Origin: Amoebophrya sp. A120 | Taxonomy: Eukaryota > Protista > Dinoflagellata | Reading direction: 5' to 3' | Length of the DNA stretch: 64,000 bases | NCBI GenBank assembly: GCA_905178155.1 | Contig: CAJINV010000011.1 | Span: forward strand, 581,982 to 645,981 | Shown: in pieces, positions 3,218-58,234 of the stretch | How the letters are laid out: every line of letters starts with the position of its first letter | Position numbering within the stretch: position 1 is the stretch's first letter | The notes under the pieces: generated by a model | What the model was told of the DNA's origin: nothing | Seen by the model: only the letters and a program-made list of their open reading frames with translations | Databases searched by the model: none | Translations under genes and position numbers: made by a program

Positions 3218-6200
3218 ACCACGTATCAGTTTCGCGGAGAATCCGCGGATTCCGCTCCTCAGCCGATGCTTCCGACTCGCTCTCCCCCACGAAATCGTCG
3301 TCATCCAGCGGCACTGCGTCCGCGTTTCCAGAAATGCCGTCTGGGTGGTCATCGTCCTCCATCGGCACCACATCCGCGCAGCTACCGGCGGTGCCCGAGG
3401 TCTCGTCGGGCTGGTTTGTCCCGCCCGCGCCGTCGGAACAGCGGCCATTCGCGGACTCATCCTCCTCTCTCTCCTCGCCATCACTGTCGTCGCCATCTAT
3501 GCCTTGCTCAGATGTTACAATCTCGAACGTTTACAATTATAAAAATCCGGATTTGTGCTGCTAGAAGAACTTCTCGTCAGCAATCACAAACACAATTCGA
3601 CCTTACTGTGACACAGCAAGGTCAGATTGTGATTCCGCGTGACAGGTGCTAGAGCGGCCAACCACGTGAGAATTCTGTTCTGGTGAAATTTGTGGATGCA
3701 AAAAATACAAGACTCTCTATGTTCCTCATGCTGTTCTTCATCCAAGGTAAATTCCAGACTCTATTGCAACGTTTGAGATTGTAACACCTGACAAGGTCAT
3801 ACGGTCGCTGACGCTTTCTTCCTGCTCGTCCTCCGCTGGGGAAGGTTCCTCAAAGAGTCCGTCCACAGAAAACGAGAGGTGCTCGAAAGTACGGTTCTCG
3901 CAGGCAGCGAGCTGCTCAGTCGGCGCGTGCAGTGACTCGCACCAGCTAGAGGCTTCGTCAAAGTGAAGTTTCAGCAGCTGCTGCCCTTCGGGAGTCCGGG
4001 TCGCCTGCACAAGCTGGACTAGGGTGCGGAGCTCGCTGACGCATGCCTCCGCTTCCGATCTGGTAGCAACACCAGGCACGCGGAACTTGCGCTCGCGAAG
4101 TCGGTTGGCCACGTAGACTGCTAATTTGTCTGCTTCATCAGCACCACCATCTGCCTGCTCAACCTTGATTTGGATGGCGTCCGCCTCCGGGTCGGGAGCC
4201 GCGTCCCCCGGAAAGACAACCCGCACGTCGGCATCGAGCAGTCCAAACGCGCCCAGCGAGGCGTTTCCTCGCGCAGTAGATTTTTGCACCCCCTGAATCT
4301 GAAGCGAGAGGAAGGTGCCGGAAATGGTGTCTACTTTGAAAATAGCAGCGATGTGCTTCTGCTTGAACTCGAAGCGCGGTTTGACGGAGAACGGATCGAG
4401 CCGCGGCAACTTGGGTAGCTCCCCAATTTTAAGGCCAAGTCCACTCCACACCGGCGTCAAGTTTTCGCTTCTCCACAAACACTTCTGGTCGTAGATGAGG
4501 TGATGCCGTTTGTGATACTCTTCATGCATTGCAAACATGTCTTGGTCTGGAACACAGTAACTGGTGATGCTACGTCTACACCCTGCAAGAATCTGTGTTA
4601 CATGTCTGCCAGCAGTTGTCCACTTTTGACCAAGTTGAGAGGGAGTTTCTCACGCATGACAGGCATGATAGAGGTCGCACAGAATCTGTCATGCCAGGTC
4701 CTGCATTGCAGACCTCATGGGTCACGGAAAATCTGCATGACAAGCTTCCACACTGCCAGACCCAGACACGTTTGCATTTGATACTTTTGGTTCCACAGCA
4801 ACTTCTCCTTCTCGGAGGACACCTTGAGACTCAGTGAGCTAGTATCAAAAGGAAAAATCCCCCCGCCCCATATCGAAATGGAAATCTGTGACGCAGGATT
4901 TGTGTACACAAATTTGTCTTGCGGTGAAGGACTGCAGACAGATACAAAGTCCGGAACGGGGTGGCTTAGGGTAGGTACTTAGCATGGCAGACGTCTGCCC
5001 TAGTAGCGCAGCAGCGTTACAAATCGCCTGCGAAATGCAGCGGAAGCCGTGGCTTTGCTCTCTTGCAAGACAGACTCGATTTGTGACGACCACAAAGCAG
5101 CATCACAAATTTTGAAAAGCACGCCTTTTCGATATGGGGAGGGGGGATTTTTCGTCACAATAGCCAGACGGTAGCCCCCCCGCTGCTTCCATCTTTCCGG
5201 GGAGACTCACCGCGAACTCTCCCGCCAAAAGGTCAAGCTCACGAGAAAGCGCCATGTGGAGGGTGTGCAGCACGTAAAATTCTTTGCGTAGCGAAGGGAC
5301 GGAGTGGTAATGAAATCTAATATTTCCGGGAGTCGGAGGTGGAAATCCTCTGTCTACGCTGCGTTCTGCGAGTTAGTATGAATTTGTTTCGAAATTATTT
5401 TTTCCTCGTCCAAGGAACAATACTCAGCTTTTCACGTAACGAAGATAGTTAAGCGGATCTTTTTTACGAGCGACAGCACAAAAACAAAGACAATTGCACC
5501 TAAAAATCTGAAAAGATACCTGTGATGAGCTCGACCAGCAGCTGCCGTCCACTCGCAATCACCATTCCCCCTGCATTCACAACACAAAACTCCACGGCGG
5601 GTGCCAGAAGATGAGACTCCTTCGGCTGCACGAAGTCGGGGTTTTTCCAGCAGACACGGGCACCCATCCGTTCCATCGAAGCGCCGGACCACATTGCAAT
5701 AATCCGGTGCATGATCGAAGTGGAGGGAGCGGACTTCGTGCCACTGTCGGGTTTGATCTTTCGCGCTGCGTCGCAGATGCCCTTTACTTCACGCTTGTAG
5801 CTGCCGTGTATCCGCTGCAGATCGGAGATGATATAGTCCAGCGCATGGACATGCTTGTAGTAGCAGCGCTTTTTCGACTCCAGCAGCTCATCGTATTCGA
5901 CCAGTTTTTCCGCACGGTGGTATTCCTCGGCCGTGGACAAGGCTGCAGCGGTGTACTCAAGACACTTCCAAAGCCCCGGCTTATTCTTGAATGCGTCGTC
6001 GACACCTGCGATACAATTGCTCGTTGTGCGAGAAGATTCCGCCGGAAGAACTTGCCCTGCTCTCTCAGCAGCGGTCCCTTCATCTTCCTCGCCACCAGAT
6101 CTTGCCTGAAGATCCTCGTCGTGATGGCACGTAGATGGTACTACGTTTGTTGACTCAGCACTGCGGAACCAGTCATGTTCCAATCCGACGACAGCCGCAA

Positions 6201-6606
6201 GCTCCTCCGCCACCTGAAACGCGTCGAGGGTCCTCAAGGCCGCGGGCAAGATCGTCAGTACGGCACCAGGCTCCAGCAGGACAACCGACGGTGCGGCGCC
6301 GAATTCATGAGGGTCTGGTCCCTCGATAGCGCCGGGTAGTTCGTTCGAAGGAGGAGGACTGGAGGAAGATTCGCCGGAGGAAGATTCATCTTTGGAGGGC
6401 GCACTGGGGCGGACCGCACGCACCCTCTGCAGCAACTCGTCATATGCCGTACTCCCTGGCTCCCACCCCATCGCGGTTTCCAACGCAGATCGCGTGAAAA
6501 AGGCCCCTTCTTCAGGAACGGAGAAATGCCGGAGCTGCATGTCGGAAGCAGCCTGGGCGGCGGCGGTGGTAACGGAGTTTTTCACTTTTGAAGATGCCAT
6601 CTTCAT
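3218..6606 (-). CDS. Hypothetical protein A (multi-exon, acidic C-terminus; 3' end uncertain)
   Basis: ORFs 5500-6606 and 3738-4538. Removing introners joins LLWNQK|YHKRHH and SVSDR|DDSDGEE in frame. The link between 5500 and 5163 is assumed to be a canonical intron. Confidence 0.6.
3498..3801. mobile_element. Introner, family H (TIR TATG..TCAG.TGTTACAATCTC.AACG)
   Basis: TIRs; flanks ccatc/cggtc. Confidence 0.8.
4523..4783. mobile_element. Introner, family A (TIR TATCAAATGCAAA.ATGTCTGGGTCTGG)
   Basis: TIRs; left end CA instead of TA; flanks ctctt/ctttt. Confidence 0.8.
4843..5162. mobile_element. Introner, family D (TIR TATC...GGAAAAATCCCCC.CCCCATATC)
   Basis: TIRs; flanks gctag/gccag. 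Confidence 0.85.
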
Positions 6607-7583
6607 CTATAATTTCACGGAAAGGTCTTATTTCGAAAAAAAAACAAAACGGGAACTTTCTCTGAACAAAAACTTTCTTTGTGCCACAATTTTTGGGGAA
6701 CAACGAGGGTTGACTGTATGCGAGCAAAAATTCCTTGTCCGAGTCTTTTCGATCATTTATTCTATCGAGTTCGTGGCACTGAACCAGTCCAAGCGACATA
6801 AAATCGAGACTGCTCAGGTCAAAAGATCGAGTTGCGTTTTCAACATCTCCAGACGAAGATTACTAAGCGCGAGTTGTTTGTCAGCACGAAGAAAGCCTTG
6901 ATGTTGTCCTGCAAAAAACCGGTACTATCGCTCGGAAGTGGAAACAAACTCAACACTCGGTGTCGGGTGTGAAAAAACGAAAAAAAACGAATAAGTCGAA
7001 ATCAACGCACTTAAACGACTCATCGCGACATCTGCGCAAGTAAAAACCGAAATTTCGGAAAGAAAAGATTTTAAAAACAGCAGCGAGCGCTGCGTGCTTT
7101 CAAAATGAGATCTCTTCCAAAAAAAAGAACAATGAGTACGCACCAGATAAGGCGCCTCGTTACGCAATATATTCCATGTTGTCACAGGCCACCAAAGTCC
7201 CGCTGACTTGAGCTTGACAAAGTTCATCCTCGTAAGTATAATATCTGTTGCAGCAAAACTCATTTCTCTTCTTCAAGGCGCAATCTACGCAAAAAGCGGG
7301 CAAGGCGCAATCTTTCGCAAGCGCGAAAGCGGATATTGGCGCTCTGCCACCAGCCTTCAAATCCTTTCTTCCATAGTGTACAGAAACTCCTGCGCTTGTT
7401 ATTTCCACGAACTGCCTTCAACGGCTGCTCATGGTGTGACGCCTGCGACGGAAAACAATTACACGCGCTCCTGGAGAAACAGAGTAGACGATGAAGGTAC
7501 TTATGCTAGTGCTGTTTTTTGACAGTGGAGGACGCTCCGTGTCTTTTGTTTTGGTCCGACGTGGATCTCTACTGCAATTTCTA

Positions 7584-10500
7584 TTAACCGGTCGTATTTA
7601 TGTCCTCGTCCTCGAGATCAGAATCAGAATCGAAGAGCGTCGAACCGCGCGTCCGCGGCGTCCCGGAGCCAGTACTACTTGCCCAGCTATGATGCCTGCT
7701 GCCCCGGGACAACAACTTGCGACGAACCGCCGGATCTCCCGCTGGTCGTCCATGTTGTAGTTCTGGCTGCTGCCGAGAACCACGAGAAGCTCCTGCCGGT
7801 GGCGGGACGCGACAAATGCGCGCGCTTTGCAGCCCGGTCCGCAGGAGCCGCAGCAGCGTCCGAATTTCCGCCTTTGCAAACGGATCCGCGGTGTAGGCTG
7901 CGGCACAGTGGTCCAGTGGCGCTAGTGGTTCCGGAACGACCTTTACCGGCACATATGGAGGAGGCAAACCGGACGAGTAGGAGTGAAGCACTGTATGAAC
8001 TGCAAAAGTATCGTACTCGTATAGATGCATTTTTTCTCAGCATGAGAAATAAAATTTGTAATGCGGATTTACCTTAAGAAAGAAATTTGTAATGCATGAA
8101 TGCGATTAGTACGAGTACGATACTTTTGTACAGGATACACTGCGGCGCCGACCAACTCCGTCAGCACGTCGAATCGCAAGGCGGCGATGGACTCCTCCTC
8201 CGCCTCAGAAACCGCAAAGTTGACGACGGGGCGGCCGACCGCGTCCGTGCAGACGTCGGCTACCAGTGCGGCGAGTTCGCCGGCCAGCCGACATAGACTC
8301 CCCCCGCCATCCCACAACACCATCTTCGCCAGATTCGCCAGCGCCGTCCCCTGCGCCAGAAAGTACAGTCCCGTCTCGCGCGGCGCACAGCTCCCGAACA
8401 GCGGTTCCCCGAGCGCGAGGCGCACCAGCATTTCCTGAACCGCTTGCACCGCGAGCAGACCCGCGTGCGTGACAGAAGCACAGGCTGTGGTCGACAGAAA
8501 TTGTAACGGAGATGCTCCTGCTGGGCCAGCAGGCTGTTGCGCTGCAGCTTCTAGGATATTGATTCCGCCCTGCAAGGAGCGCGACAAAAACGTCGACGAC
8601 GCAGACGTTCCAGCATTGATTGTACCACTACTACCACCTGTTGTTCCACCTTCGATCACCGCGGCGGCTGCTGCTGAGAAGGCACTCGCACCCGTCATCG
8701 CCGCAGCGCCCGCACACGGCCCGCTGCGGATAAAGTCCGCCAACGTGTCGCGCGCCATCTGCAGCTGCTGCAGTGGCTCGAGAAAGGTCGCCGACGGACG
8801 CACGTGGGGAGCGCGGACGGGGCGCACCCGGAGACACTGCACGGCGAAGACGCGCAATGTCCAAGCGAGGAGTTGCCCGTACTTGTTTTTCCGCCCGCAC
8901 AAACTTTTCAAAGCGTCCTCGGTCACGAACGCCAGCGCGAGATTGCGCAGCAACGCCAGCGCGAGCCCGAGCCGCGCCAGGTCGTCGTCGGACACCCCCT
9001 TTTCGTTCCCCCGCAAACCAGAGTACGTCGTGTCGTGCAGGAACCCGATTGCGTTCGCGAGAACCACCAGCTGTGCGGCCCACCGCGCCGCCCGCAAGCA
9101 CGAGGCCGAGATTCTGCCGATGTGTCGGGTGCACTCCCCCAGCCGATGTTGAGCTATCAAATGTAAAAGTGTCTGGGTCTGGAAACTTGTGATGCTGTGT
9201 GGCGTATCATGAGGAGGCGACAATTGCTGGCTCAGCATGATAAGTTTTTGAGCTTCTAGAGGTTGCCTATTCTGCATGACAAACTACGTTTCTGCATGAC
9301 AGAAAAGTAGGGCTCTTTGGTAATGTGCATGACAGATTTAAGAATCACGCCAGACAAGCATGACAAACTTGCATTCTTCCAGACCCAGACATTTTTACAT
9401 TTGATATGAACGTGTGCCGCTCGACTGGAATTCATCTCCGCCGTCTCATCGGCTCCTGGTCCTCGCGGCGGACCCGCAGATGAAGTACCGCTGCTACTGA
9501 TTTCACGTGCAAATCGCCGCAACCGCTCGACGCGGAACAGTTTTGCGAGCGCGCGGCCGCAAGTTGCACCGGCCCAGCGGATATCAAATGCAAATACGTC
9601 TGGGTCCTCTGGAACAAAGCAACTTGTCATGCTAAATCTGAATCATGGAAAATAAATCTGTGTTGCATGATTACCGAATAAAGTTGTCCACTTTTGACAT
9701 AATCGAGAGGCAGTTTCTCATGCAGGAGAGGCATGATAGAGCTCTCACAGAATCTGTCATGCTATGTCCTAAATACCAGACCTCATGGGTCATGGAGAAC
9801 CTGCATGACAAGTCTGGCATTCTTCCAGACCCAGATCGATATTTGCATTTGATAGCGGAGGCACTGCGGAACCACTACTCCCGGCGCTCGGCTGGGAGTA
9901 GTCCTAACCCAAGAAGGTGGTTGTTCCCCGCCGTCTACGACTCTGTCGACCAGAGTCAGGAATTGCGCAAGCAGGTGGTTGGCTTGCTGGTCTACGGAGC
10001 TGTTCTTGTTCGACCTTGCAGTTACTCTACCTCGTCGCGAGGTAGTACAACTAGTTGATGGCATCATCATCTCCACGGGATTCAGCGCCAGTATTTCCTC
10101 GGTCTCGGTTATCGCAAGAAAAAAGTGTTACAGTTACACACTGTGTTGCAAGACCGGCAACACAGACAACCTTTCTCGTGCAGAAAATGCTTCGGAGCCT
10201 CGTTTCCTTCCTGTTTTCCCTTATGATCTTCGCATTGCAAGTTTTCTCTGTCACACAGAGAAAATTTGTGATGCAGAAACTCCAACAAATGTGTAACTGT
10301 AACACTTTTTTCTCGTGATATCGGTCCGGCACACAGGACACCGGCCCTGGTACGTCCGCGCTCGCCGCATCTGCGAATAGCACTTCCCGTGAATAAAATG
10401 TCCACACGGCCACAGACCGAAGCTGATGCGGCTTGATGTTTGTCCTGCTGGGTCTTGATGTTCCCGGACACATACAGGCTCCAGACAGATCGGGCACGAG

Positions 10501-11991: not shown

Positions 11992-14900
11992 TCAGCCCCC
12001 CGCACGATGCCAGTCCCGCCACAAGACGGGGACTCCTTCTTCTTGATACGCTCGTTTACTGTGCGACGACGTTTGCAGCTGCGAATGCACTTCCTTCCAT
12101 ACCTGGTGACAGTCGTACCAAAGCTTGTGTTTCAACACTTCCATTTCACTTCGCAGTTCCATGGCCACGTCCACCGGTTTCCCGCCCGCCGCGGGATGGC
12201 ACACCCGCTGCCAAGTCGGAATGACCGCGCGCCGCTGGTAGCCGTAGCAGAACTCCAACAGCTGTAGCACCGCCTCGCACTCGGCCCAGGTGTGGGTGGT
12301 GGCCTCGAACACGATGAGTCGGGGCAGTGCGATCAGCCCCAGATTCTCGAACCGTTCCCACATGAGGGACCGCACGATGCCGTAATCGGCGTATCAAATG
12401 CAAATATCCCTGGACGTCTGGAAGAGTGCAAGATTTGTGACGCAGGTTTTCCATGACCCATGAGGTCTGGAATGCGAGACCCAGCATGACAGATGAGATT
12501 CTTTGAGGTCTCTATCATGCCTTTCTTGCATGAGAAACCCCCTCCCAACTTGGTCAAAACCGGACAGCTTTTGGCACTCACGCAACACAGGCTTTTGCAT
12601 CATTCAGATTTAGCATGACAAGTTCTACTTAATCTTCCAGACATACAGGGATTTTTGCATTTGATACGGCGTTGCAGCAGTCGATCTTAATGGTGTCGAT
12701 GAGCAGAACGCGCTGCAGGGTCTATCGAATGGAAAAATCCCCCCTCCCCATATCAAAACGGAATTTCTGATGCTGGATTTGCGTACACAAATCAGCTTTG
12801 TATTGCAGAGAGGCATTGCGGCCAGGTCCCCAGGCTATGTAGGGGCGTATAGGTCTAGTATTTGTTCAGCATTGCAAACGGCTCCCCTTTAGGCCCAACC
12901 GCATGATAAATTGCTTCCATAATGGGGCGGAAGCTTCTGTCCTTGTCTTCTTGCAATACAAGTGTGATTTGTGACCTCAAATCCGCAACACAAATTTTCG
13001 GAAACATACCTGTTCAATATGGGGAGGGGGGATTTTTCCTTCTGATAGCGTCAGGATCTGGTGCAGGGACTCCACCGGGACCAGTTATCCTGTTTAAAAA
13101 CGCCCCCACCACACAGGTAGTTGTCATGCAATTCTGCATGCTGAAAATGTTTCCCATGCGTAGTCCCATGCGAAGCGCCCACTCGTCGCGTTTTGGAATT
13201 TGTGATGCTCCAACCAGCATAATAGGCCACGTCTGTGATGCTGCTGAAGCAACTAGCCAAACCGAACTACATTACGAGGCCAAACTTGTTATGCGCAATG
13301 CCCAAAGCTAGCTGATTTGTGCAGCAGATTCTCCATCTTGACTCTGGGGTGGAGGGGATGCTTTTATTCAGAATACCAGTTCGCGCTTCATCAGGTGCAG
13401 CAAGCCGTTGGAGGCGAGCACCTGCAGCAGGTAGTCGACCGGCTGCTCTATGCTCGTGCACGCGCACGCCCGCTCGCCCACGAACTGGCAGGTGCGGCAG
13501 TCGTACTGCCGATGTAGCCGGCACACTGTGTTTCCGCAGGTCCGCATGTGCTGCATCAGGTCCGGGTCGAGGCCGTAGAGGTAGCGGTAATGGTTTGCAT
13601 CAAAACTTCTAGTACTGGCCCGAGTGGGTCCTTTACTAGGTTTTCGCCTCTGCCACTCGTCCTTGCGCTTCCAGGCTCTCACCGCAGCAACCTGGATTTC
13701 ATCCGTGGGTTGGATCTTTACAAATATGCACCATAGGCATATTGTTTGACGATCACGACGAAGACGATCAGACATATTTATTATGAACAAGTTGCACAGG
13801 ATGAAAGTCGTGCAACGAAAAATGAAAAACAAGAACCCTCTTCTACTACGTCTCTCTCGCCAGATTCGGTCCGGTAGCTGAGCGGGAGGGGCGCGGCGAG
13901 TAGTTATCGTAAGGGAAAATCCCCCCTCCACATATCGAAAGGGTGCGTCTCAGAAAATTTGCAATGCTGATTTGTGGCCACAGATCGTTTCTGTCTTGCG
14001 CGAACGCAACTCCACAGTCTCCGCCGCGTTCTGCAGGCGGTTTGTGATGCTGGTGGCCCTACAGACTAGACGTTTGCCATGCGCAGCGCCTAGCCCAAAA
14101 CATCTCTACGCAGTCTTGATATAGGCCTGCAGTCCTCTCCAGCAAGACAAATCTGATTTATTGTGTATGCAAATCCAGCATCAGAAACCTCGTTGCGATA
14201 TGGGGAGGGGAAATTTTTCCATTTGATAGCAGGTCCCGCCCCGGCTCGGATACAAACGAGCTTTGTTCCTCCGGAATGTCGGACACCTGCAGCGAGTCGG
14301 GCGTGGCGTCCTCTGCTGAAAAAGTAAGCACCTGTTGCTCGACTGCGCAGGGACCACTTGGCCTTGTGTTCGTGTTCGTCCCGGGGTGCCCACCACTGTG
14401 GGGGTTCCTGGAGGTGGTGCTTGTCGTTTGCTCCTGCTTGATGGCACTGAAAACGTCATAAATTTTCCAACCGTCTACTTCCTCGACAACGAAGCCTGCT
14501 TCCGTCTGGATCTGGCCGCTGCTCCTATTGGTTATGACTTGCACTTGCTCCTCGCTTGCTCCTTCAAAAATATTACCATCGCGTGCCGGTGGTCGTGTCT
14601 CTGTCTTCTTCGCCACATGATCTTCCCGTAGTTCCCGCTGCAAAGGGACCGGAGCCTCCTCGTTGTATACCACTTGTTCATCTCCGATGCTGCTGGTGAC
14701 AAAGACAACATCGTCGTCGTCATAATTTTTATCCTTGCGGCGGTGGGCGGCCACCTGCTCGCCCGCAAGTTCCTCCTCTTCTTCCCACACTTTCCCGGTC
14801 TCCCGGTAGTAGAGCCACGAGAGAAAGTCCGGATTCGTGCAGTCAGAATCGCGGACCAGACGCAACTGCTCTCCCTCGGACTTGTCCGAGAACCATCCCT

Positions 14901-15819
14901 GCTCCCACCTCCAGTACTGCACCACCCAGCTGGCCAGGTACTTTCGGTGCTCCTCGTCCTTGATTTTCCGCTCCCCGCGCCCCGTGAGCCGCGTTTTGAC
15001 TACTTTTTGCAACTTCGTCAGGTTGCCCGACTCTTCGGGCAGCGAGTCGAGGTTCTGTGTCCCAGGAAAGAACTGCAACTGCTTCATCACTCTTCTTTGT
15101 TTTGCAAGATCTGCACCACAACCTTTTTCCACATGACACGGAAACTTTGCCGTGCGCGCTTCCGCCCAAGTGAAATATTAAACACAGTGGAAGATAGATC
15201 AAGTGTTTATTTGCAGGTGTAGCAAGACAAAAAAGTTTTGCGTTTCAAATTTTGCATCACAAGTAAGTTCACAGTGAAACGGTTTCTATTTTCCTGCGAT
15301 ATTCTGCTGGATGGCGTCAATGCTGATCCCCGTGGCGGTCGGCAACCCCAGCCACTCCTCGCAGCCCTTGTATAAACTTGCGCATTTCGAGGAGAGGAAG
15401 TACGCATTGCTGTCCCCGTCCCGGTCAAGGTCCTCAGGGAAGCAGGCCTGCGCGAAGCTCTGGTAGTACGACGCACCCACCTCCACGAAGTCCCGATACT
15501 CCGGGAGAACCACCAACGCGGGGTCGTCGAGATGCTTCCGTACCAAATCCTGAAAAAACAGCGCCACGGCGTTCAGGGTCAGCAGCTTGTACCTGCGGTA
15601 GTCGAGGCTGGTAACCTGGTCGATTTTTGCCAGCTGCTCCAACTGCTTAAACCTTGGAATCACCAAGTAATCCCGCATCGACAAGGTCCCGCGTTTATCC
15701 GCCGGCAGGTCGCGCTTCAAAGGCCGCATGCCCCAAAAGCAGTGGTTCAGCTCGATCACCCGCTCTCGTCTCCGGACGGCGGGAGCTCTTGCTCTTGGTG
15801 GATGCGAGAAGTCCGTCAT
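11992..15819 (-). CDS. FkbM-family (Methyltransf_21)-like SAM-dependent methyltransferase with long insertions
   Basis: N-terminal FVEVGAS motif. Reconstructed C-terminal LLIDTIKIDCCNA|DYGIVRSL...PRLIVFE resembles FkbM IDxxKIDxEGxE...PxIxxE. The junction near 15110-15300 is not resolved. Confidence 0.6.
12392..12666. mobile_element. Introner, family A
   Basis: TIRs; perfect TSD cggcg. Confidence 0.9.
12723..13047. mobile_element. Introner, family D
   Basis: TIRs; flanks gggtc/gcgtc. Confidence 0.9.
13086..13375. mobile_element. Introner, family B (TIR TATCCTGAGTAAAAACGTCCCCACCCC)
   Basis: TIRs; perfect TSD ccagt. Confidence 0.85.
13905..14228. mobile_element. Introner, family D
   Basis: TIRs; flanks gtagt/gcagg. 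Confidence 0.85.
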
Positions 15820-46484: not shown

Positions 46485-47529
46485 CCTGATAACTGGGGCG
46501 CTTTGCTTCTTTTAGAAACAACAGCGATTTTCTATCTGTTGGATTTTTTTCTTTTTTTATGTTGTTTTTTCGATGGATCTTCACGTCGTGTTCGAGATAG
46601 TTAGAAGAACCGTTATTGCGCTGACGAGCTTTCAGACCAACTGATGAGAAAGCGAGCTTCTTGGCGTAGTTTTTCCTTTTTAGGTACTTATTTGTTCGAG
46701 CAAATAAATCAGGAATTTGATAAAAAATTCCGACTCAGGTGTGTAATCTTGCAGTGGAGGTTTAGTTTGGAAAATTGTTGAGCTACCGGGGTGCCCTTGT
46801 ATCACCTGCGTTATTGCGAGTGGGTGGATCCATATTTAGCGAGTTATATATCAGGTGATCTACGTGCTGACCGACGTTGCGTGACAAAAATGCGAGGCTA
46901 AAATTCAGTTTGTCTCTCCACATGAGCTCTCAAAATTTTTTATCGGCCGTTCCTGCAACGTTACGGAGCCGGTGCTCCGTTCATGGGCTATAATGATCCG
47001 TACCGAAATACGGCCGCGTGTAGCAGTACAGCAGGAGGATTGCACATAACGCTCGGCTCGAAAACTGATGAATTTATTCTGTTCGGCGCTGTCGCCTTAG
47101 AATGTCCTTTTGCGACCTTGTAGTCTCATTAGTGCCTGGATCGGTATTCTATCACTTGCTGTTGTTGATTGAAACGACATCGCTGCTGAAGAGGAAGATG
47201 AAGATGATGAAGATGATGTAGCTCGAGCTGAAAATAAAGAAGAAGAAGAAGATGATGATGATGATGCGGCTCGAAAACTAAACTGAGAATCGCGGGACCG
47301 GAGAGTACTCTTGCCAGGAGATCTTTGTTGGCGCGAAGGGACTCGCGGCGGCCCCGTGCGGCGCGCAGTTCTGGTGCACCTTCATATTCTACCGACACTT
47401 ACGCCGTATTTTACACGCGGCGGTCGGAGACGTGCCGGCGTGCACGCAAGGTGAGAAGTGGCATGGCCACGCCTGTTTCACGGCGGACGCTGCAGTACTT
47501 CGCGCATGCGCGCAGCGCCAAGCTCTCGA

Positions 47530-47640
47530 CCGGGCGGGGGCCGGACCGGGTGGCAGGGCGGGGGCCGGACCGGGTGGCCGGGCGGGGGCCGGACCGGGTG
47601 GCAGGGCGGGGGGCGGACCGGCGGGGGCAGGACTGGGTGG
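47530..47640. repeat. GC-rich 24-bp tandem repeat (GGGCGGGGGCCGGACCGGGTGGCA)
   Basis: Three to four tandem copies, G-run rich. Confidence 0.85.
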
Positions 47641-48590
47641 CCAGCGCAAAATGCCGCACGTTGACTCACCACAGGCACACAATCTCGCACAGCGCCCAGA
47701 CAAAGTAGTAAAATATGGCACGGCGGCTGTTCAAAGTAGCAGAATACGGTCTCTTGCCCAGTCAAAGTCGGAAAATCTGGCACATTACCGGGTCAAAGTA
47801 GCAAAATCCGAGGCGTTGACCGGTCAACTTCGCAAAATCTGGCACGTTCAACGGCCAAAGTTGCAAAATCTGGCATCTTGAGCAGTCAAACTCACAAAAT
47901 GTTGGATGTTGAAAAATTGCAGTTGCAAGATCTGCCACGTTCAATGGCAAAAGTTGCACAATTTGGCATCTTAAACGGCCAAAACCGCAAAAACATCGCA
48001 AAGCATTGCCTATTCACTACAAAAATTTGGAAAATCCTATGTGTTAACCGGTAAAAATTGCAAAATCTTGCTTATTGACCACCAAAACTTGGAAAATGTG
48101 GCGGCTTGACTGATCAAAATCGAAAAATCTTGGTAATTGACAAGCCAGAATCAAAAATTATGGGCATTTTACCGGCAAAACGTGCAAAATATTGGAGAAA
48201 ATTGCAAAATATAGCAAATTCATTGGCTCAAGTGGGAAAATCTGGCACATTGGCCGCCGAAAATTGAAAAATATTCCACATCAACTGGCCAAACTTGTAA
48301 AATAATACATATTAAGTGGCGAAAATCCTGAAATTTTGCGCACTTATCAACCAAAGTTGTGCAATTTTGCACCAAACGTGGCCAAAGTTGCAAAGTCTTA
48401 CGCGCTAACTCGCCAGGGTTGCAACATTTTGCAAATTTACCAGCTAAACTCCGAAAATTGTTCAGAGTCAAAGACAAAAGTTAAGCAATATTGCATAAAA
48501 AAGGCAAGAGCGTTGTAATGTTGCACAAGTTCACTGAAAAAATGTGAAATCTTGCTGATTGACTTGCCAAAATCGCAAAGCCCTCAACTC
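47640..48590. repeat. Degenerate satellite with a period of about 33 bp (CAAAGTTGCAAAATCTGGCAC.TTGACCGGT)
   Basis: Recurrent gcaaaatctggca and aaagttgca motifs at regular spacing. Confidence 0.7.
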
Positions 48591-49873
48591 GCGACCGTCG
48601 GGGGCCCTCACTGAGTATGATGCAACGACCTGCCTCCTCGATGAAGGCCGGTGGCAGTGCAAAGACCCCCTCCTACATTTCGCTCCATGACCGCGCGCGC
48701 TCGGGTAGCGACCTGTCAAAGCAGACCCGACGGGGTCGGTTTCCCCCCCCCCCCCCTCCTTTCCGTCCGCGCACAAGCCGCGAAGCAAGCGGAGCGCGGC
48801 CATATGACTGCGACCATCGTCTTCATCCATGGCCCCGGACGCCCTTCCCCCCGGTCCAGTTCGGAAGGGGGCCCTGACGGCGCCGCGGCGCCTTCCTCGG
48901 GCGGCGCGCGTTCGCGCTACGATTCCAGCCGCCGGGCTGGGTCCGGGCTTAGGGACCCCGGGCCGAAGGATGTTGCTCGCTCCGCCAGCGGTGCTGCGGC
49001 GATCGGTATTTCGGGGCGAGGCGCCCGGGCCGTGCTTCGGGCACTGTCAAAAGAAAACGCGGAAACCGCACCCCGGGAGTGCAGTCACAGCGGCGCCCGG
49101 GCGCCCGGGAATCGGGGCAGCCGCGACCGCACCCTCTCGCCCGCTGCTTTGCGACGGTAAAAATTAGTCGCCCGTGCTACAACCGCTGTGCATCGGGAGA
49201 ATAAACCTATCACCAATATCCTACTGCGTCCAATACTAACTAAGGTGCGCGTCGTGGTCCTCATTGAGAAGCTTTTCAACCTTCAAAATTTGGCGTGTCT
49301 GGTCATTGAAATTTTGAACGAAGTTCCGTGGCTCAGCGCGATGAGAAGTCAAGTGAGTGAAAACAGATCCTGACGCACCGCTAGATCCGTTCTACTACCC
49401 AACCACATTCTCAAACACAAACTTGAGCAGCAACAGGGCACGCCGTAGTCTTAAATTGTGCTTCTCGAAGATGGAGTGAGCGTCTCTGTAAAAATTGTTC
49501 CAACGCTACCGCATATGATACTACGAGGGACTACGCGTCGTGCTCCTGTACCCACGGAAGAAAACTACACATGGCAGCATATCAATTTCGCGCCCGAACT
49601 ACGGAAATCGTCGGCCGCCGCCGAGCACGTGGCGCAGAAGAATCCGGGCATTTTTCTCGCTGTCCCGCGGTCGCTTTAACACCAGCACTACTTTGTCGAG
49701 GATTTTTACGCACCGCAGAACCCTTTCGTATCAACCTGCCGAAGAACTACTACCCGCGACGCCGAACCCCCTGGGGCATCGCCACAGAACTCGCGTGTTC
49801 TACTGCGACGCGCTTGTAGCCCGGCGCGCCGAGTAGTGTAAAGCCCGGCCGCGGGGGCGACCAGGTCATAAGT

Positions 49874-52800
49874 ATGAATCCGCTGCGGCACTTCCTGGAG
49901 GCGCATCCCAAGTACAACCCCGACCAGACCACGCGCGCCGATGACCTTCGCCAGGCCCAGAACGAGCTGCGACGGTGTTCGCGATGCGCGGACGGCGTGT
50001 CCACCAACCAAGCGCGGCTGCCGAAGCAGGAGGTATGCAATGCCAATGCAAAAGTATCGTACTCGTATAAATGCATTACAAATTTCCTCAGGATGAGAAA
50101 TAAAATTTGTAATGCGAATTTACCTTAAGATGAAAATTTCTAATGCATGACTGCAATACGAGTACGATACTTTTGCACAGGATAGGAGGGACCGTGGGAC
50201 GATGCTGCGTGCATCGACGAGCTGGTGCAGAACATGGACGACCACGTATCAAAAGGAAAAATTCCCCCTCCCCATATCAAAACGAAGTTTCTGATGCTGG
50301 ATTTGCGTACACAAATCAGATTTGTCTTGCTGGAGAGGATTGCAGGCCTATACTAAGCCTGAGTAGAGAGGTTTTCTGCTAGACGCTAAGCATGGCAAAC
50401 GCCTAGTCTGTAGGGCCAACAGCATCACAAACCGCCTGCAGAATGCGGCGGAGCCTGTGTAGTTTCGGCCCTGCAAGACAGAGATGATTTGAGGTCACAA
50501 ATGAGCATTACAAATTTCCTGAGACGTGCCTTTTCGATATGGGGAGGGGGGATTTTTGCTTACGATACCACGTGCGGCTGATGAACCAGAATGCGCACGC
50601 TATCCTGTGTAAAAACGTCACCTCCACCCCAGGGTCAAGCGGAAAGCCTAGCAACGCAGATCCAGAAATTTTGGGTACCAATTTTTTATATCCGTGTAAA
50701 ATAGGAAAATATGCGTGCGCACTAGACAAGTTTGGGCGAGCACTTTGATCTGATGTTTTGCTAGTGCCGCCGCATGAATAGATTATAAAGCGACTCGTGA
50801 AGATTCTAGCCCAGGACAAACTCCCCGGAGACAGCATTGGAAAAGGCGGCCTGTCATGTGGCTGCGCATGAGAAACTTTTTAGGCATGCCGATTTGCATG
50901 ACAGCTCTCGTCGGTTGGGGACTCCGGCGTTTTTCCCCAGCATACACGTCGAATTTACGGAGCCGGAGTTCGCCGTTTGTACAGTCAGGACGACCACTAC
51001 TCGCCGGCTGTACTACAGCCACACGTCGCGGTTTCGCCCGCAGTTCGGGTACTTGCTCCGTTGTTCTCCTGTTTCTTCATCTACTACCGCAGAAGGAGTA
51101 GAACACCGAAAAAGTAGTAGACCCCCGCGGAACGGCGCACTTAGTGCTGCAACTACACATGATAGTAGTACTGCTGCTTCCAACAAGAAGCACCGCCTCG
51201 GGTGTCTCGGGGTCTCCTCCGATTACATCTACCTGCTTAACTACGAGACGTGTTTCCGCCCGCGGAACTTGGTGGTGGGCTACACGGGGGAAGAGAAGCG
51301 GGAAACGTGTCAAGCCCGGAAGCTGGCGTATCACAGTGAAAAATGCCCCCACCCCCAAAGTTGCAATAATTTGTGATGCGAAGTTTCCAAGTGAAAACTT
51401 TTTGTCATGCCTGAAAGGAGTGTAAATCTTTCTGATTCAGATTCTAGGCGTAAATAGCATCGTTCGGATGACAAGCGACGCTCTTGCTGGGATCTTTTGC
51501 AATGCAAATTTTTGCTATTCACGAAGATGGAAAGTCTGTGACGCTGATAGACGCAAAAGGGCGAGTGTTTCAGGTGGAAAGGTTTGCAATACGAATGCTC
51601 CCAAGTTCGGGGGTGGGGGCGTTTTTTATGGTAATATGGCGAAGGGGAAATTCGGCGACGGGCTGAACAGCTCCATCAACCGGCTTTTGTCGTCCTCCTG
51701 TAAGGAAATGAAGCGGTCCGTGGAAATTTTCACGTGCGGTTGGCGCTACACGTTTTTCTTCAGCGACAAAGCGAGTCCGACGGGGGTCGAGACTTTAGCC
51801 TACACGGTGGAGCCTTTTGATATGTATAACACACCACCACCAGCTGCGGGGACCACGCGGGGGAGTAGTAGTAGTGTTTGCGGGATGAACAACAATCGAA
51901 ATAGCTGTGGTTCTTTCCCACCGGAGCTTGATTTCGATGCGAACAGCGATACTTTAGTCCGTATCTACGCCCCCCAGTTCCAGTTCGACTACAGTCGGTA
52001 TCTGTTCTTCCTGCGTTCTGATAAGCACGGCAAAAGTAGAAATCCGATACTAGTATGAATTGCATCTTCACAGACTTTCTCTCAGCATGAAAAATTGAAT
52101 TTGCAATGCTGATTAGCGTGGTACAGAGGTAGATCTGTCTTGCTGATGCATGCTCGCGATTACTACAAATGCGATGCTTTTGGAGTGCATATCTGACCAG
52201 GTGTTGCAGCTCGTTGTAAAAAAGCCGGAGATGATATTGAATCATGCTAATTCATCTCGGGCTAGCGGAAAGCAAATTCTCTTGGATGTTGCCAACAAGA
52301 AGGCCGACCACTCCCACCACGACGAAGAGGTTTTTGACGCAGCCCCGCCCAGAATGCAGGTGGAGGTGCTTGCCAGCGTCGAAACCCGCAACCGCATGTA
52401 CGTGAAGGGTATGGTCGTGATCGATCGGAACCGCCGGAACGGCACCGGGCCCCGCCTGCGTAACCTCATGTTCGGGTACAACCTGGTTGATTTCGAGATG
52501 CGCTACCGCGACCGACAGGAGAGCCTGTCGTTGCAAGATCAGCAGGAGGCCGTGACGCTCGGGTGGCACGCGCTGCGAGACAACAAACCGGCCATGAGCA
52601 ATTTGTTTGAAGCGCTGCTGGGGCATGAACTCTGTTTCGAGCTCCAGGTGCTGTCCGAAAACGTCTGCGAGGAGACGAAGGAGATCTGTGTATCCTAAGG
52701 AAAAACATCCCCACCCGAGAGTCAAGATGGGGATCTCGCAACACAAGCCAAGAAGTTTTGGGAGTCACGCATGACAAGTTCCTCTCTGTATTGTAGTACA

Positions 52801-55800
52801 GTTTAGCAAGCGCAGCCGCATCACAAAGCCATCTGCTCATCCTCTTTGCAGCATTACAGAGTCCAAAACACGATTGCAAACGCCTCTCATGGGGATGCGC
52901 GTTACAAATTTTCCTGTGACTGCAAATCTGCATGACAACTATGGGGTTGGAATATAGTGGCCGGGAGATGATGGTGATGGCACTTTGGTGTCCGCCTGAC
53001 CCACCCGCCCTGCGTCTCAAGCCATCTGCGGCCATGGCACAAAGGGGGGGCAAAGTGCGTCGCATTTTGTTTAGCATGACAACTATGGGGTGGGGACGTT
53101 TTTACTCAGGATACTGTGTTGCGATGAAGGCAGCGTTTGCGGAGAAGTACGGGGTAATATGCGAAGAAAAAAGTGTTACAGTTACTTACAAACTCTGATG
53201 CAAGACCAGCAAGAGAGATAACCTCTGTCGTGCAGGAAATGCTTTCCAGCCTCATTTCATGCGTGTTCTTTTCCCTTATCGTCTGCGCATTACAAGTTTT
53301 CTTCGCTACGCGGTAGAGCGACTTCGTGATGCTGAAATTGCAACGAATGTGGAACTGTAACACTTTTTTCCTGTGATAGGTAAATGCAAGACCCTACTGC
53401 GATGAAAAGACGAAGGCGGCGATCGAGAAATTACAGCTGCTGCCGCAGAAGGTATAAAAGGGATCATATATTTTTTCAGTGCTGAATGAAGATGCTAGGT
53501 ATAAAAGCTATGCTCTAATTTCTGCTATTCAAAATTTTTTAAAAATCTCACTGCAGTGTTTGCGAATCAATGCTATTTTTTTACCTGCACAAAAAGAAAC
53601 CCAGGTTCCCCTCCCTCTCATGCGCCTTCTCCAGAACCTCTTTGTCTCCCCGGAGCGCGAGCTGGAGACCCAAAATTCCGCCAAGCTCATCAAGTCCCGG
53701 CACGTGCGGCACTCGCAGCGGGACAAGACCTATCGCGGTCTGTACAGCGCGCTGCAAGCCGCGGTGGAATCGTGCGTGGTCGCTCCGGAAGACGATGTGA
53801 TTGACGACCCGATCGAGTCCAGACAAAATCGGCTCCCGCAACTCCACCTCCGCGACGGGAAGCACATCCAACTCTCCGCCTGCGTGCGAGGCGAGGAGCG
53901 GACGGAGTTTTGGCTTTCTGGATTTCTGAAATACCCGTATTTAAACCGGGGGTACAAACTGGACGAGGAAAAACTATGCATTGCAAAGGTATGATCGTAC
54001 TAGTATAAATCGCATGACAAATTTCCTCAGCGTGAGAAATGTAATGCGGTTTTCACTTGACAAAAAAATTTGTAATGCATGACAGCGATTGCTACGAGTG
54101 CGATACTTTTGCACAGGATAAGAGCCGTGGATCAACAATTGTCCGGTGTTTTGGGCGTGCCGGGACACCCGGAACGTGCCCCACACGAACGGCAGGTTCG
54201 AATACTTCCTCTACTTTGACGGCCACCGGTACTGCATCCAAGCGGCGAACAAACTCCACGACGTGCAGGCGGCGCGGCAAACGTACCCCCTAGCGGAACT
54301 GGTCACCACCGATCTCCCCTGGTGGGCGCCCCGCACGCAGTGGCGGGAGCTTCTGGGGGAAAGGTTGCCGACGAAGAAGGTGGAGGCGAAGGATTTCGAT
54401 GCAAAGCCGGTGGAGGTCACGGCGACAGCAGTTCTTGGAGGAAGACAAAATGCTGAAAGAACACAAAAATCTTCACACAGAACCACCGGCTCCTGTACAA
54501 CACAACAACACGATAGTAGGTTCGATGTTTACGTCAACTGGGACTGCTTTCTCGAAGTTCTGGAGGCGGAAGAGGAGGAAAATTTCGAATTGAACAAAGA
54601 CCTGGCATGCATCCAGCTCGCGGCCGCCTCTGATTTTGCGAAGGACGTTCTGCAGAAGGTACGGGACGGCTTGGGGAAACTACGCACGATCGCGTTAGCG
54701 CAACACGACTGGGACGAGATCTCGAAAAGGGCGCAGGACCGCCTCATCAAAATGTTCATCCCGATGGACGAACAAAATAAATCGCGAGTAGCAGCGGACG
54801 AGGTTCATCTTGCACCAGAAATAATAAACATTAATGAAAATAAGAACAAAAACCGCAGCACAAGCACAACTTCAAGCTGCCTCGAGGACCCTGCGTTAAT
54901 ATTACTGCAGAAGTCCACCTTGGCCAAGTTCCGTTCCACCGACGTTCAGCAGCAGCTCGCGAACTTCGTCGCCGAGCTATTGAGAGGAAAAATCCCCCCT
55001 CCCCATATCGAAAAGGTATGTTTCCGAAAATTTGTCTTGCTGATTTGAGACCACAAATCACGTTTGTCTTGCAAGAAGACAACTCCACAGGCTCTGCCGC
55101 ATCATGCAGGCGGTTTGTGATGCTGTTGGGCCTACACCATAGACGTTTCTCATGCTAAGCGCCTAGGCCACAACTTCTCTACTCAGGCTTGGCAGGAGCC
55201 TGCAGTCCTCTACTGCAAGACACACGTGATTCGTGTACGCAAATTCAGCATCAGAAACTTCCGTTTGATATGGGAAGGGGGGATTTTTCCTTGTGATGCG
55301 AGCAGCTTGCGCGGAAAAAGCTGTGGCTGGACCGGGGAAGCAATACAGATGAAGAAGATGATCCGGATAAAATGCTACTCGGCGACGCGTATGGATTGCA
55401 AATATGTCTGGGTCTGGAAGAGTGGAACTTGTAATGCTGTCTGCGGATTCTAAAAATATCTGTGTTGCATGAGCAGCAAGAGGACTCAGCTTTTGGCACG
55501 CGGAGAGGGCGTGTCTCATGCGTAATTAGCATCAAGAGGCTCTCAAAATCAAAAAATCTGTGTTGCTAGCACCAGCATCACAGACCTCACGGGTCATGCA
55601 AAATGTGCATGACAAGCCCCGACTCTTCCAGACCCAGACATTTTTGCAGTTGATACCGCGGTCTTGCGGTTCTTCACGGCGCTGCAGTGCTTGAAGTCGA
55701 AGCATAGTGTCCACGAAACGGAGGCGATCGACCAGTATCTGTGGAGCGAGGAGTGTCTCGGGAAGAGCTTGTACAAGGACCTCCGGTACACCATTGGGCA

Positions 55801-58234
55801 CAGTTTGGTGCAGTCGGAACAGAAGTACACCACGCTGACAAAGTTTATCGCAAGCAAAAAGTGTTACTGTTACACGCATAGCCTTCTACTATGCAGGGAA
55901 AGCAAGACAGACAACCTCTGTCATGCCGGATATGCATACACACCTTGTTTCGTACGTGTTTTATTCCGGTAGGATTTCTGCAACGCAAGTTTTCTGCCTC
56001 AGGCAGAGAACAAATTTGTGTTGCTGAATTGGCAACAAATGTGTAACTGTCAACACTTTTTCCGTGTGACAAAGTTTCTCGCGACCTTGCTGGAGAGGGA
56101 AAAGCTCCGGCTGCCCCCTGCCTTAGCGGATGTGGCCGCGGGGGTGAAGACGACCGAGGAGTTGCCGTTGCCCACCGTTCTATTACACTGCATCAACGCG
56201 GCACACTTCACGAGCTTGTTGGAACGGAAGAAGGGCTTCGGGAAGGAGAAAAGGGGATTGCTGGACCTCGATTATGGCCGCCGCGCGGGGGAGAAGAAAG
56301 ACGAAGAAATATTAAACGACGTCCTCCTTGGTGCATCGGAACCAGCTGCAAATGCAGGGTCGTTGAAAACAAGCACGCGGTCAAACTCAACATCCGTGAG
56401 GAGCAATAAGCTACTTGGAGAGCCGCGCGGTGGAGCAGGTCCTCCGGCTGCGAGTGCATCGACAAGTGTGGTTGAGCGACGTGGTGAACAAAAATCCGCA
56501 AGAAGCTGCTGCCCTGAGCATGATGGTGAATCGAATGAAGGCATCGTGAAGGGCGCGCTGGAGCTGGCAACGAAGATAAAGACTACGAATCACAATGCTA
56601 GTACGTGGAATTATAACGCGCAAGCAGGAACTACAGTGGCAAGCTACACGGAAGACGCAGTACAAAATTCGGCGCAACATCAAGAAGTAGACTCCACCCG
56701 CCGCCGCCGCACGTCGAGCTTGGAGGCAGCGGAGAAAAGCATACTCTCTAGCAGCGTGGGGACCACGCCGGTGAAAAAGCGCAATGCTTCTACTGCCGAA
56801 GAGGAAAAAATCAAGCGCGATGAGCAGAACGAAAGCGCGGCTGGAAGCGCTGGCGGAGCTGCTGCTTCGAGCTCAAGCAAGTGGCTGGCGAGTGTGCAGA
56901 ACCGGATGAGCAATAAGAGAAAAAGATCTTTGTCCAGCGAAAGCGAGAAGAGCTTCCAGCCGAAGGAACTTTCGTCGGCACTTCAGACGAAGGTTTTGGG
57001 TGCGCGGAAGTCCTCCCCGAAGTTCACCATTGAAGAAGGTCAGTCCTATCCCAGTGCAGCTTCGGAAAGCGACAGAGAAATAAAGCCAGTCAAGGAAAAG
57101 AAGAAAGTGAAATATTATGACAAATCCAAGAAAGAAAAAAAGAAGAAAAAAGCACGGAAGGAAAGAAAAGCGAACAGCGATGGTGAAAAAAGTGACGTCC
57201 TCGAGGAGGTCTCTTTTGACCAACGGCCCGGGCATCTCAAGCTCATGAAGGGCGTAACCCTCAAAGAGCAGAGAGGGAAAAAGATAGAGGAGCAGCGTGA
57301 GGGTGGTGCCCAATCGAAATCCACCTCCGCTACGGAAGGTGGTGCTAAAGCCTATCCCTTTTTCGCCGGTGCAGCAGCTGCAGCAAGAACGACGACTAAA
57401 TCTAATGTTGTCCTCCCGAAGAAGATTTCCCCCCGGCGACAGGCGCAATACGACCGCGACTACCAGGAATTACTACACCTCCGGGAGCAGAACCGCTGTG
57501 AGAATGCGGGCACCCGCCGCTTGGACGAGATTTACCAGGAAGAGAAGGAGGCGCGACAAAGGTTAGAATTGCAGAAGAAGGAAGAAGAGGCACAGAGGCG
57601 GAAGGCAGCACAGGAAGAGAAGTTGAAAAAACTGAGGTACGTCGAAAAGCTGCAGCAGAGCTACCAAAATAACGCGGGCGATGGGAAAATAAATGGGCTG
57701 CTGCTGGAAGAAGCTGGCGAGGCGAGATGTATTTCGCAGCGCAACCCCGGGATGCTGACGCAGAGGAACCCGGCGTCTCTCTCGCAGAGAATTGCAAATC
57801 CGCTGTTGTTAACCACGCCGTCGCCAGAAGTGAATGCAAAAAACACTACTGCGTGTTCTTCTACCGGGGTGGATTTCTATCGGAAATTCTGCCGCGGTGC
57901 GGCAGTGGATTATGGATTGCAAAAATGTCTGGGTGTGGATGATTGCAACTTGTCATGCTAAATCTGAATCAGGCAAAAAACTGTGTCGCATGGTTGCCAA
58001 AAGTTGTGCACCTCTGATCTAATCGAGAGGCAGTTTCTCATGCAGGATAGGCATTCGAAAGGTCCCACAGAATCTGTCATGCTATGTCCTACACACCAGA
58101 CCTCATGGGTCACGGAGAACCTGCATGACAAATCTGGCAATCTTCCAGACCCAGACATTTTTGCAAACCATATGGATCTGAAACCTGCAAAAGGGAAATG
58201 CATCCTCAAGCCAGGACCGAACGGCAGGAGGTAA
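49874..58234 (+). CDS. Large hypothetical protein with a Lys/Glu-rich C-terminal region; 12 introners plus one GT-AG intron
   Basis: Junctions checked are in frame (PKQE|GPWD, DH|VRL, HA|EFT, KLA|KGK, RSD|QVL, IC|VAMK, EEK|PWINNC, AVD|LKP...RR*). No recognisable domain; start uncertain. Confidence 0.7.
50034..50184. mobile_element. Introner, family F
   Basis: TIRs; perfect TSD ggagg. Confidence 0.9.
50247..50567. mobile_element. Introner, family D
   Basis: TIRs; perfect TSD ccacg. Confidence 0.9.
50601..50944. mobile_element. Introner, family B
   Basis: TIRs; flanks cacgc/cacgt. Confidence 0.85.
51329..51636. mobile_element. Introner, family B
   Basis: TIRs; perfect TSD tggcg. Confidence 0.85.
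52022..52191. mobile_element. Introner, family F
   Basis: TIRs; perfect TSD tctga. Confidence 0.85.
52691..53113. mobile_element. Introner, family B, with an internal insertion
   Basis: TIRs; perfect TSD ctgtg. Confidence 0.9.
53158..53378. mobile_element. Introner, family E
   Basis: TIRs; perfect TSD ggtaa. Confidence 0.9.
53975..54120. mobile_element. Introner, family F
   Basis: TIRs; flanks aaaac/agagc. Confidence 0.85.
54978..55298. mobile_element. Introner, family D
   Basis: TIRs; right end TG; perfect TSD cgagc. Confidence 0.9.
55390..55655. mobile_element. Introner, family A
   Basis: TIRs; flanks acgcg/ccgcg. Confidence 0.9.
55846..56071. mobile_element. Introner, family E
   Basis: TIRs; right end CA; perfect TSD aagtt. 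Confidence 0.9.
57911..58172. mobile_element. Introner, family A
   Basis: TIRs; perfect TSD tggat. Confidence 0.9.

Follow-up and report, generated by a model that had tools for sequence, protein, structure and literature searches.

Polarised decay of the terminal TA in introner elements of Amoebophrya sp. A120 and evidence for a common splice register

The genes in a 64,000-nucleotide stretch of Amoebophrya sp. A120 (contig CAJINV010000011.1, positions 581,982 to 645,981; hereafter the window, numbered from its first letter) are interrupted over and over by elements whose inverted repeats end in TA, which raises the question of where these sequences are cut out and what signal marks the cut. 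They are non-autonomous inverted-repeat elements of the introner class already published for this organism. Over 60% of Amoebophrya introns lack GT-AG ends, and no U1 small nuclear RNA (snRNA) has been detected; how such introns are spliced is described as an open question in the literature available to us. An earlier note, made from the sequence of the window, had held that the TA at the transcript-5' end is invariant and the one at the 3' end dispensable, and had taken UA as a 5' splice signal read in the RNA. The polarity was borne out, while the cut most probably lies one base upstream of the UA.

The element catalogue, compiled by two scans blind to the two terminal bases and by hand curation from the sequence, comprises 63 elements of 109 to 2266 bp rather than the 60 counted before. 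Oriented by transcription, all 63 have kept the 5' TA and six have lost the 3' TA (binomial p = 0.031, Fisher p = 0.028). Five of these losses were those originally listed, namely 4523 (CA), 17057 (TG) and 20696 (CA) at left ends in minus-strand genes, and 55297–55298 (TG) and 56070–56071 (CA) at right ends in plus-strand genes; the sixth, TG at 15058, had been missed and is also at the transcript-3' end.

The polarity was checked beyond the window in 166 loci (L001–L166) from another assembly with the same families, which may or may not be A120. These loci were fetched with an inner motif excluding the TA; 310 of the 331 unique calls, with at least 4/5 matches in the flanking direct repeat, were kept, and 21 calls with 3/5 matches (14 with TA..TA and seven with other ends, apparently mis-paired) were dropped before counting. 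TA was changed in 18 of the 310 further elements, 16 times at the 3' end and twice at the 5' end (p = 0.0013), with strands called by hand and not blind. A codon model for strand, correct in 52/52 cases in a leave-one-gene-out trial at a margin of at least 5, oriented 212 elements and gave nine 3' changes against two 5' changes (p = 0.065); all 17 automated calls regardless of score gave 13 against four. Hand reading of frames overruled the model at L008 2489 and at L074, L161 was called by hand, and the calls at L004 and L051 are of moderate confidence. Pooled over both sets, 22 changes are at the 3' end and two at the 5' end (p = 3.6e-5, or 0.0015 with two doubtful strand calls flipped). One element in L004 (about 1565–1810) has unmatched ends, lies between oppositely oriented ABC-transporter-like exons and looks chimeric.

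At single-base resolution, none of the 373 elements has a changed 5' T, whereas the mirror base of this T is changed 12 times, and the 5' A is changed twice, against 11 times at its mirror base; the claimed invariance thus holds for the T and not for the A. The polarised decay is confined to these first two bases of the element: repeat positions 3–34 have no such polarity (285/6993 versus 339/7278 changed, 4.1% versus 4.7%, p = 0.09), the 3' TA decays at a rate close to theirs (8 and 7 of 275), and the 5' third base is not better kept than its 3' counterpart (non-T in 7/275 versus 3/275).

Small numbers, ascertainment or strand-biased mutation are highly improbable as the source of this asymmetry. 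Taken singly, the window (p = 0.03) and the automated replication are modest, the hand strand calls were not blind, and the window has no intergenic control copies. The searches, on the other hand, were blind to the terminal bases, the pooled asymmetry survives the flipping of doubtful strands, and, since TA is palindromic, strand-biased mutation should not be able to produce it. The catalogue is also complete by an internal motif, GCAWNACA, with 209 copies within the 63 elements and two in the other 44 kb of the window, so that few if any elements were missed. This 8-nt motif is present in 62/63 elements, in both orientations and across otherwise unrelated families; it is a candidate binding site for a transposase or a splicing factor. 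All 63 elements lie within transcribed sequence, 62 in coding frames and one in a 3' untranslated region (UTR). The intergenic copies proposed as a control by the earlier note were not found in the window, and the element at 40639 proved to lie in the UTR and to be spliced.

Outside the TA ends, every element is flanked by a direct repeat with a mean identity of 0.90 at length 5 and of 0.25–0.32 at other lengths (2–4, 6–8); the repeat is exactly 5 nt, and TA is therefore the terminus of the inverted repeat rather than a target duplication. A TA target duplication, as in a Tc1/mariner-type miniature inverted-repeat transposable element (MITE) or a TA-bounded internal eliminated sequence that leaves one TA, was ruled out: neither TA is left after removal, and what is duplicated is a free sequence of 5 bp. 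By position counts, the inverted repeats start with TAT, followed by seven variable bases and at least three A, with ACAA in place of AAA in one family. Predicted folds pair the element ends in 5/5 elements tried. No target-site preference of the insertions was seen. Families were recognised from 101 element pairs that align over 60% of their length, 53 of them in the same and 48 in opposite orientations relative to transcription; as families have inserted both ways, the asymmetry follows the transcript and not a physical end of the element. Removing each element plus 5 nt gives open frames of up to 2755 codons, spanning 14 elements. As an arbiter between element plus 2 and element plus 5 nt, the reading frame was uninformative (58 versus 59 elements in long frames), and the RNA joints decided.

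Joints were sought by comparing positions 32100–52000 with contigs from four runs of one study (X1–X4, two samples), whose RNA status is presumed. Thirteen joints were found, each in 4/4 runs, and 12 of them skip exactly the element plus 5 nt. The thirteenth, 42663>43513, skips 849 nt, equal to a canonical GT-AG intron (560 nt), an element and 5 nt. Here (42952–42953) the introner landed 2 nt past the canonical acceptor, leaving a micro-exon of one base, or of two if the cut is at the T; the exact product in 4/4 runs suggests that the introner may be removed first. Identity of the direct repeat was ruled out as the guide of the 3' cut, since the element at 38067, with 2/5 repeat bases alike, is removed precisely.

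The earlier note had also argued against excision of the elements from DNA. Such excision would be by ciliate-like or transposase action, with the asymmetry left to chance or as a by-product. The inverted repeats and TA ends do resemble those of DNA elements, and the RNA status of X1–X4 is a presumption. The same contigs, however, skip a canonical GT-AG intron; their depth falls from about 1000 in neighbouring genes to 0 at 47372–49363; a low-depth unspliced contig coexists with a spliced one (14 versus about 900); and in run X7 the 15058 element is present, letter for letter, within contigs of even depth. Together, these data point to splicing and not to DNA excision, and a symmetric DNA reaction would give no transcript polarity, which makes DNA excision scarcely credible. 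The X7 joint table was swamped by repeat-derived joints, and the first comparison used contig piece ends only; a further run of the same species label (X11, raw reads) had 214 reads placed, all on element sequence, with no joint information.

The position of the cut was judged from which repeat copy had supplied each joint base where the two copies differ, and is expressed as d, a count of the intron bases that precede the 5' T. Explicit joints allow d of 1–3 (38062>38353), 0–1 (40633>40869), 0–2 (41826>42020) and 0–1 (the composite 42663>43513), while the other nine have identical repeats and do not discriminate. Piece ends, with the far side inferred, allow 1–6 (17057), 0–1 (20696), −1 to 1 (13905), 0–4 (18150) and −5 to 2 (4523). 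The only single register that fits every joint is d = 1, to which the two tight joints lead by themselves, and which had been set as a hypothesis from piece ends before the joint data of 32100–52000 were seen. Piece ends at elements without a 3' TA (4523, 17057, 20696) fit it too. The elements at 4523 and 20696 belong to one family (linked via 55390) and lie in opposite orientations; since d = 4 is excluded at each of them, the register goes with the direction of transcription. The one source of information for the plus strand, the annotated protein P0121, allows d of 0–3. The direction of mismatches between repeat copies gave too few cases to be informative as a test of the register.

Thus, the joints argue strongly for one shared register, N|UAU…AUA NNNN|, with cuts 1 nt upstream of the 5' TA and 4 nt downstream of the 3' TA; the exon/intron boundary then falls inside the 5-bp repeat. 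Under this register, the protected T would be intron position +2 and the A position +3, and the 3' TA would lie at −6/−5 and not at the acceptor. As claimed, the 3' TA is dispensable, because the acceptor lies 4 nt further downstream; this TA was lost in 6/63 elements in the window and accounts for 16 of the 18 changes in the replication set.

The features of the window are given below; "unlike" refers to positions of the 5-bp repeat at which the copies differ, cuts are counted in nt before the 5' T, 3' end letters are as in the transcript, and ORF stands for open reading frame.

1027–3217, minus: long introner, 2191 bp, TA..TA, identical 5-bp repeats; ORFs without Pfam match
3498–3801, minus: introner, unlike at 3 and 4
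4523–4783, minus: introner, 3' TA lost (TG), unlike at 3; contig piece end 4512 allows cut −5 to 2
4843–5162, minus: introner, unlike at 3
7994–8137, minus: introner
9155–9406, minus: introner, unlike at 2
9582–9854, minus: introner
10110–10320, minus: introner
12392–12666, minus: introner
12723–13047, minus: introner, unlike at 4
13086–13375, minus: introner
13692–13849, minus: canonical intron GTAG..CAG, as deduced from two pieces that belong to the same RNA-type contig
13905–14228, minus: introner, unlike at 1 and 4; pieces start 14228, allowing cut −1 to 1
15058–15301, minus: introner, 3' TA lost (CA); letters matched by X7 contig
17057–17277, minus: introner, 3' TA lost (CA), unlike at 5; pieces end 17052 (X1) and start 17279 (X3), cut at least 1
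18150–18436, minus: introner, unlike at 1; piece end 18144
19830–20275, minus: introner
20696–20958, minus: introner, 3' TA lost (TG), unlike at 4; piece end 20690, cut 0–1
21021–21293, minus: introner
22854–23125, minus: introner
23367–23645, minus: introner
24278–26543, minus: long introner, 2266 bp, internal AACG repeats, unlike at 3 and 4; two longest ORFs without Pfam match
27998–28260, minus: introner
28318–28572, minus: introner
28628–28783, minus: introner, unlike at 2 and 4
29587–29781, minus: introner
29821–29929, minus: introner, the shortest, 109 bp
30313–30532, minus: introner
31003–31310, minus: introner
31907–32195, minus: introner
33167–33375, minus: introner, unlike at 5
33884–34154, minus: introner
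34363–34521, minus: introner, unlike at 1
34708–34927, minus: introner, unlike at 5
35273–35443, minus: introner
35551–35762, minus: introner
38067–38351, minus: introner, 2/5 repeat bases alike; joint 38062>38353 in 4/4 runs, cut 1–3
40639–40868, minus: introner in 3' UTR of the aldehyde dehydrogenase (ALDH) gene; joint 40633>40869 in 4/4 runs, cut 0–1
41721–46484, minus: ALDH gene, spliced model equal to P0001, 484 aa
41832–42019, minus: introner in ALDH; joint 41826>42020, cut 0–2
42063–42330, minus: introner in ALDH; joint equals element plus 5
42367–42558, minus: introner in ALDH; joint equals element plus 5
42668–42951, minus: introner 2 nt downstream of canonical acceptor; part of 849-nt joint 42663>43513, cut 0–1
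42953–42953, minus: putative one-base micro-exon (G) under the N|TA register
42954–43513, minus: canonical intron GTAC..CAG in ALDH
43611–43872, minus: introner in ALDH; joint equals element plus 5
44183–44365, minus: introner in ALDH, TAC ends; joint equals element plus 5
44404–44690, minus: introner in ALDH; joint equals element plus 5
44913–45218, minus: introner in ALDH; joint equals element plus 5
45252–45475, minus: introner in ALDH; joint equals element plus 5
45535–45785, minus: introner in ALDH; joint equals element plus 5
45827–46055, minus: introner in ALDH; joint equals element plus 5
50034–50184, plus: introner
50247–50567, plus: introner
50601–50944, plus: introner, unlike at 5
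51329–51636, plus: introner
52022–52191, plus: introner, 5' end TAA
52691–53113, plus: introner
53158–53378, plus: introner
53452–53604, plus: canonical intron GTAT..CAG; agrees with annotated protein P0121
53975–54120, plus: introner, unlike at 2 and 4; P0121 allows cut 0–3
54978–55298, plus: introner, 3' TA lost (TG at 55297–55298)
55390–55655, plus: introner, unlike at 1
55846–56071, plus: introner, 3' TA lost (CA at 56070–56071)
57911–58172, plus: introner
59763–59907, plus: introner, unlike at 2
59973–60234, plus: introner
60576–60842, plus: introner, 5' end TAC

The joints bear directly on the literal model of the earlier note, in which U-A occupies intron positions +1 and +2 and is recognised by a variant U1 or U6 snRNA with complementarity to UAU(C/G). 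The polarised decay on which it was built is real, and 7/9 informative junctions permit a cut exactly at the T. Nevertheless, in the joint 38062>38353 (4/4 runs) and the 17057 pieces, base 5 of the repeat comes from the downstream copy, and a U-A start is thereby excluded; the third base, which such a variant would read, is not polarised. In Table S4 of Farhat 2021 (PMC7789003), the nine top non-canonical motifs of A120 all start with NT and none with TA, and U1 snRNA was not detected in that study, which describes a near-complete spliceosome with U2, U4, U5 and U6. The model is therefore very unlikely and a variant U1 is without support; what stands of the original claim is RNA-level removal and a polarised constraint, with UA displaced from the first dinucleotide by one base.

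The +2/+3 register puts the introners beside the canonical introns of the same transcripts. All three canonical introns fixed in the window start with GTA (GTAG, GTAC, GTAT). The repeats of strain A25 begin with TTA and its nine top motifs in Table S4 all start with TT (PMC7789003), so that the two strains, despite their different offsets, appear to share U at +2 and A at +3. These two intron bases are paired with U6 in the human spliceosome, U+2 with A45 and A+3 with G44, according to the passages seen of PMC9803359.

We consider it probable that the introners are handled by the ordinary spliceosome with its U6 contacts kept and its check of +1 against −1 lost. U6 snRNA would read U+2 and A+3 as it does in canonical GUA donors, and the predicted end-to-end hairpin would fix the 3' cut at 4 nt beyond the stem foot. 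The requirement for G+1 and G−1 would have been dropped at both ends together, which would allow any 5-bp target to be spliced tracelessly with the element in either orientation. A stricter version may also hold, and is put forward more tentatively: a U1-less spliceosome working without G+1, terminal AG or a fixed branch site, guided by U6-read U+2/A+3 only and using the transposon hairpin as its 3' ruler.

A number of observations weigh against this proposal. G is found at +1 in 93/275 cases and AG at −2/−1 in 24/275, both at chance level, which a normal spliceosome would not tolerate; only 1/63 introners reads GT-AG under the inferred register. The candidate branch A, at repeat position 16 in the 3' arm, is less conserved there (20/226 versus 8/219). 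The register itself rests on four informative explicit joints and five piece-end inferences, all in minus-strand genes, and only two cases (38067 and 17057) exclude a cut exactly at the T. The joints at 33167, 34708 and 50601, named beforehand as tests, were not seen in the RNA-type contigs; the elements at 33167, 33884, 34363, 34708, 35273 and 35551 and those of the plus strand gave no joints, which reflects lack of coverage and is not evidence. To these are added the non-blind strand calls and the two changes of the 5' A, in L024 2263–2529 and L045 4542–4786. The former element reads G|TG, that is, a GT donor; the latter reads A|TT, and its downstream exon repeats the same 11 bases, so that an assembly or conversion effect is possible.

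In the spliceosome, G+1 and the intron's final G pair with each other. No pairing preference between +1 and −1 was seen in the introners, and within the last 38 nt no 3'-arm position is kept better than its 5' mirror in the manner of a branch A; redundant or distant branch sites may exist. No Rfam matches were found in the window, to which that search was limited.

The same register and RNA signal could instead be served by machinery outside the spliceosome, either an endonuclease with a ligase or a distinct apparatus such as is suspected for the nonconventional introns of euglenids, with the stem and the U at the 5' foot of that stem as its recognition features. The lack of signal at G+1, at AG and in a polarised branch A agrees with such a route, as do the failure to detect U1 (PMC7789003, as far as its text was available), the long stem predicted in 5/5 folded elements, and, in the passages seen of PMC11282704, the release as circles of euglenid stem-loop introns with offset pairing. 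We regard it as unlikely: the constrained bases match canonical GUA positions +2 and +3 in A120, and Table S4 suggests that they do likewise in A25 at another offset, a double match for which an unrelated enzyme would have no reason.

If the stricter, U1-less version of spliceosomal removal is true, the same N-U-A rule holds in two strains whose repeats are unrelated (TAT at offset 1, TTA at offset 0), and their splice code would be the barest yet known, one rule for tens of thousands of "signature-less" introns. The fixed register and the two-base polarised signal make splicing in Amoebophrya directly testable and correct gene models in which junctions are currently placed ambiguously inside the direct repeat. 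They also show a route from a DNA transposon to a harmless intron at any target.

Exons 46056–46484 and 52198–52686 are 100% identical to P0001 and P0121 of Amoebophrya sp. A120, respectively, and the spliced models match both proteins; the ALDH model minus ten elements and one canonical intron equals P0001 exactly, with 484 aa versus 485 aa in unrelated homologues. The ALDH canonical intron 42954–43513 is filled with a short tandem repeat of CTTAAGTCGTGCG-like units. The annotated start of P0121 lies downstream of the 50601 element; at 49874–51700, after removal of four introners, the frame runs about 240 codons upstream of this start, and the public P0121 model may be truncated. For the gene at 921–5372, no annotated-protein match was found at 129–413 aa, and a representative search gave fragments only. 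A near-identical stretch comprising a gene start and upstream sequence is duplicated at 1–520 and about 6523–7050, as seen by eye.

The long elements 1027–3217 and 24278–26543 belong to one repeat family and contain internal tandem and inverted repeats (AGAGGG-rich and AACG-rich); none of five ORFs searched in them has a Pfam match, and they possibly represent captured or nested DNA. No transposase was found in the window; autonomous copies of IS3EU/GingerRoot elements carry an integrase-like one. At 37089–37093, each of the four runs has RNA-type contigs of other origin that join here and leave long loose ends; the cause may be trans-joined sequence, or a 3' UTR repeat held in common, near 36750–37118. 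The block at 46760–49400 is silent and intergenic; it contains a tandem repeat rich in GC as well as a degenerate, A-rich repeat array, and could be another mobile element.

How do these introners compare with known systems? The closest is the published one. The accessible text of PMC7789003 describes A120 introner elements of about 240 nt whose repeats read TAT, seven variable bases and AAA, with direct repeats of 3–5 nt (5 bp in the legend of Fig. S19) overlapping the exon/intron boundary, and proposes that a hairpin joins the exons. The window elements come from the same organism and share the TAT repeats, direct repeats, family structure and non-GT-AG removal. According to that text there is no clear splice signature, the position of the splice sites with respect to the hairpin varies and the border is unknown, whereas here one register fits all joints and the decay is polarised. 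The NT start is latent in Table S4 of that paper, and its Figs. 3 and S19–S25 may show it; neither the register nor polarised decay was found stated in the literature searched, which lacks most subscription papers.

Canonical U2-type introns, which the same transcripts carry as GT-AG introns starting with GTA, have U+2 and A+3 in common with the introners; the latter differ in having no G+1, no terminal AG and no detected fixed branch A, and in a 3' site apparently set by stem distance. The nonconventional introns of euglenids, in the passages seen of PMC11282704 and PMC12621601, also have offset-paired inverted repeats, duplication-like junction repeats and a proposed MITE origin, but they pair +4..+6 with −8..−6 (CAG/CTG), against +2 with −5 in A120, and are released as circles; those passages report no U+2 rule. 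The introners of Fritillaria borealis (PMC11282704 and bioRxiv 2025.08.15.670264, both in part) are likewise derived from MITEs, with inverted and direct repeats, and are spliced by an adapted U2 spliceosome; their ends are mostly AG-AC or AG-AT with G at +2, whereas in A120 positions +1, −2 and −1 are free and +2 is U. Among transposons, IS3EU/GingerRoot elements share the TA..TA termini of the A120 elements; their target duplications are usually 6 bp (PMC10045372, in part), against 5 bp in A120.

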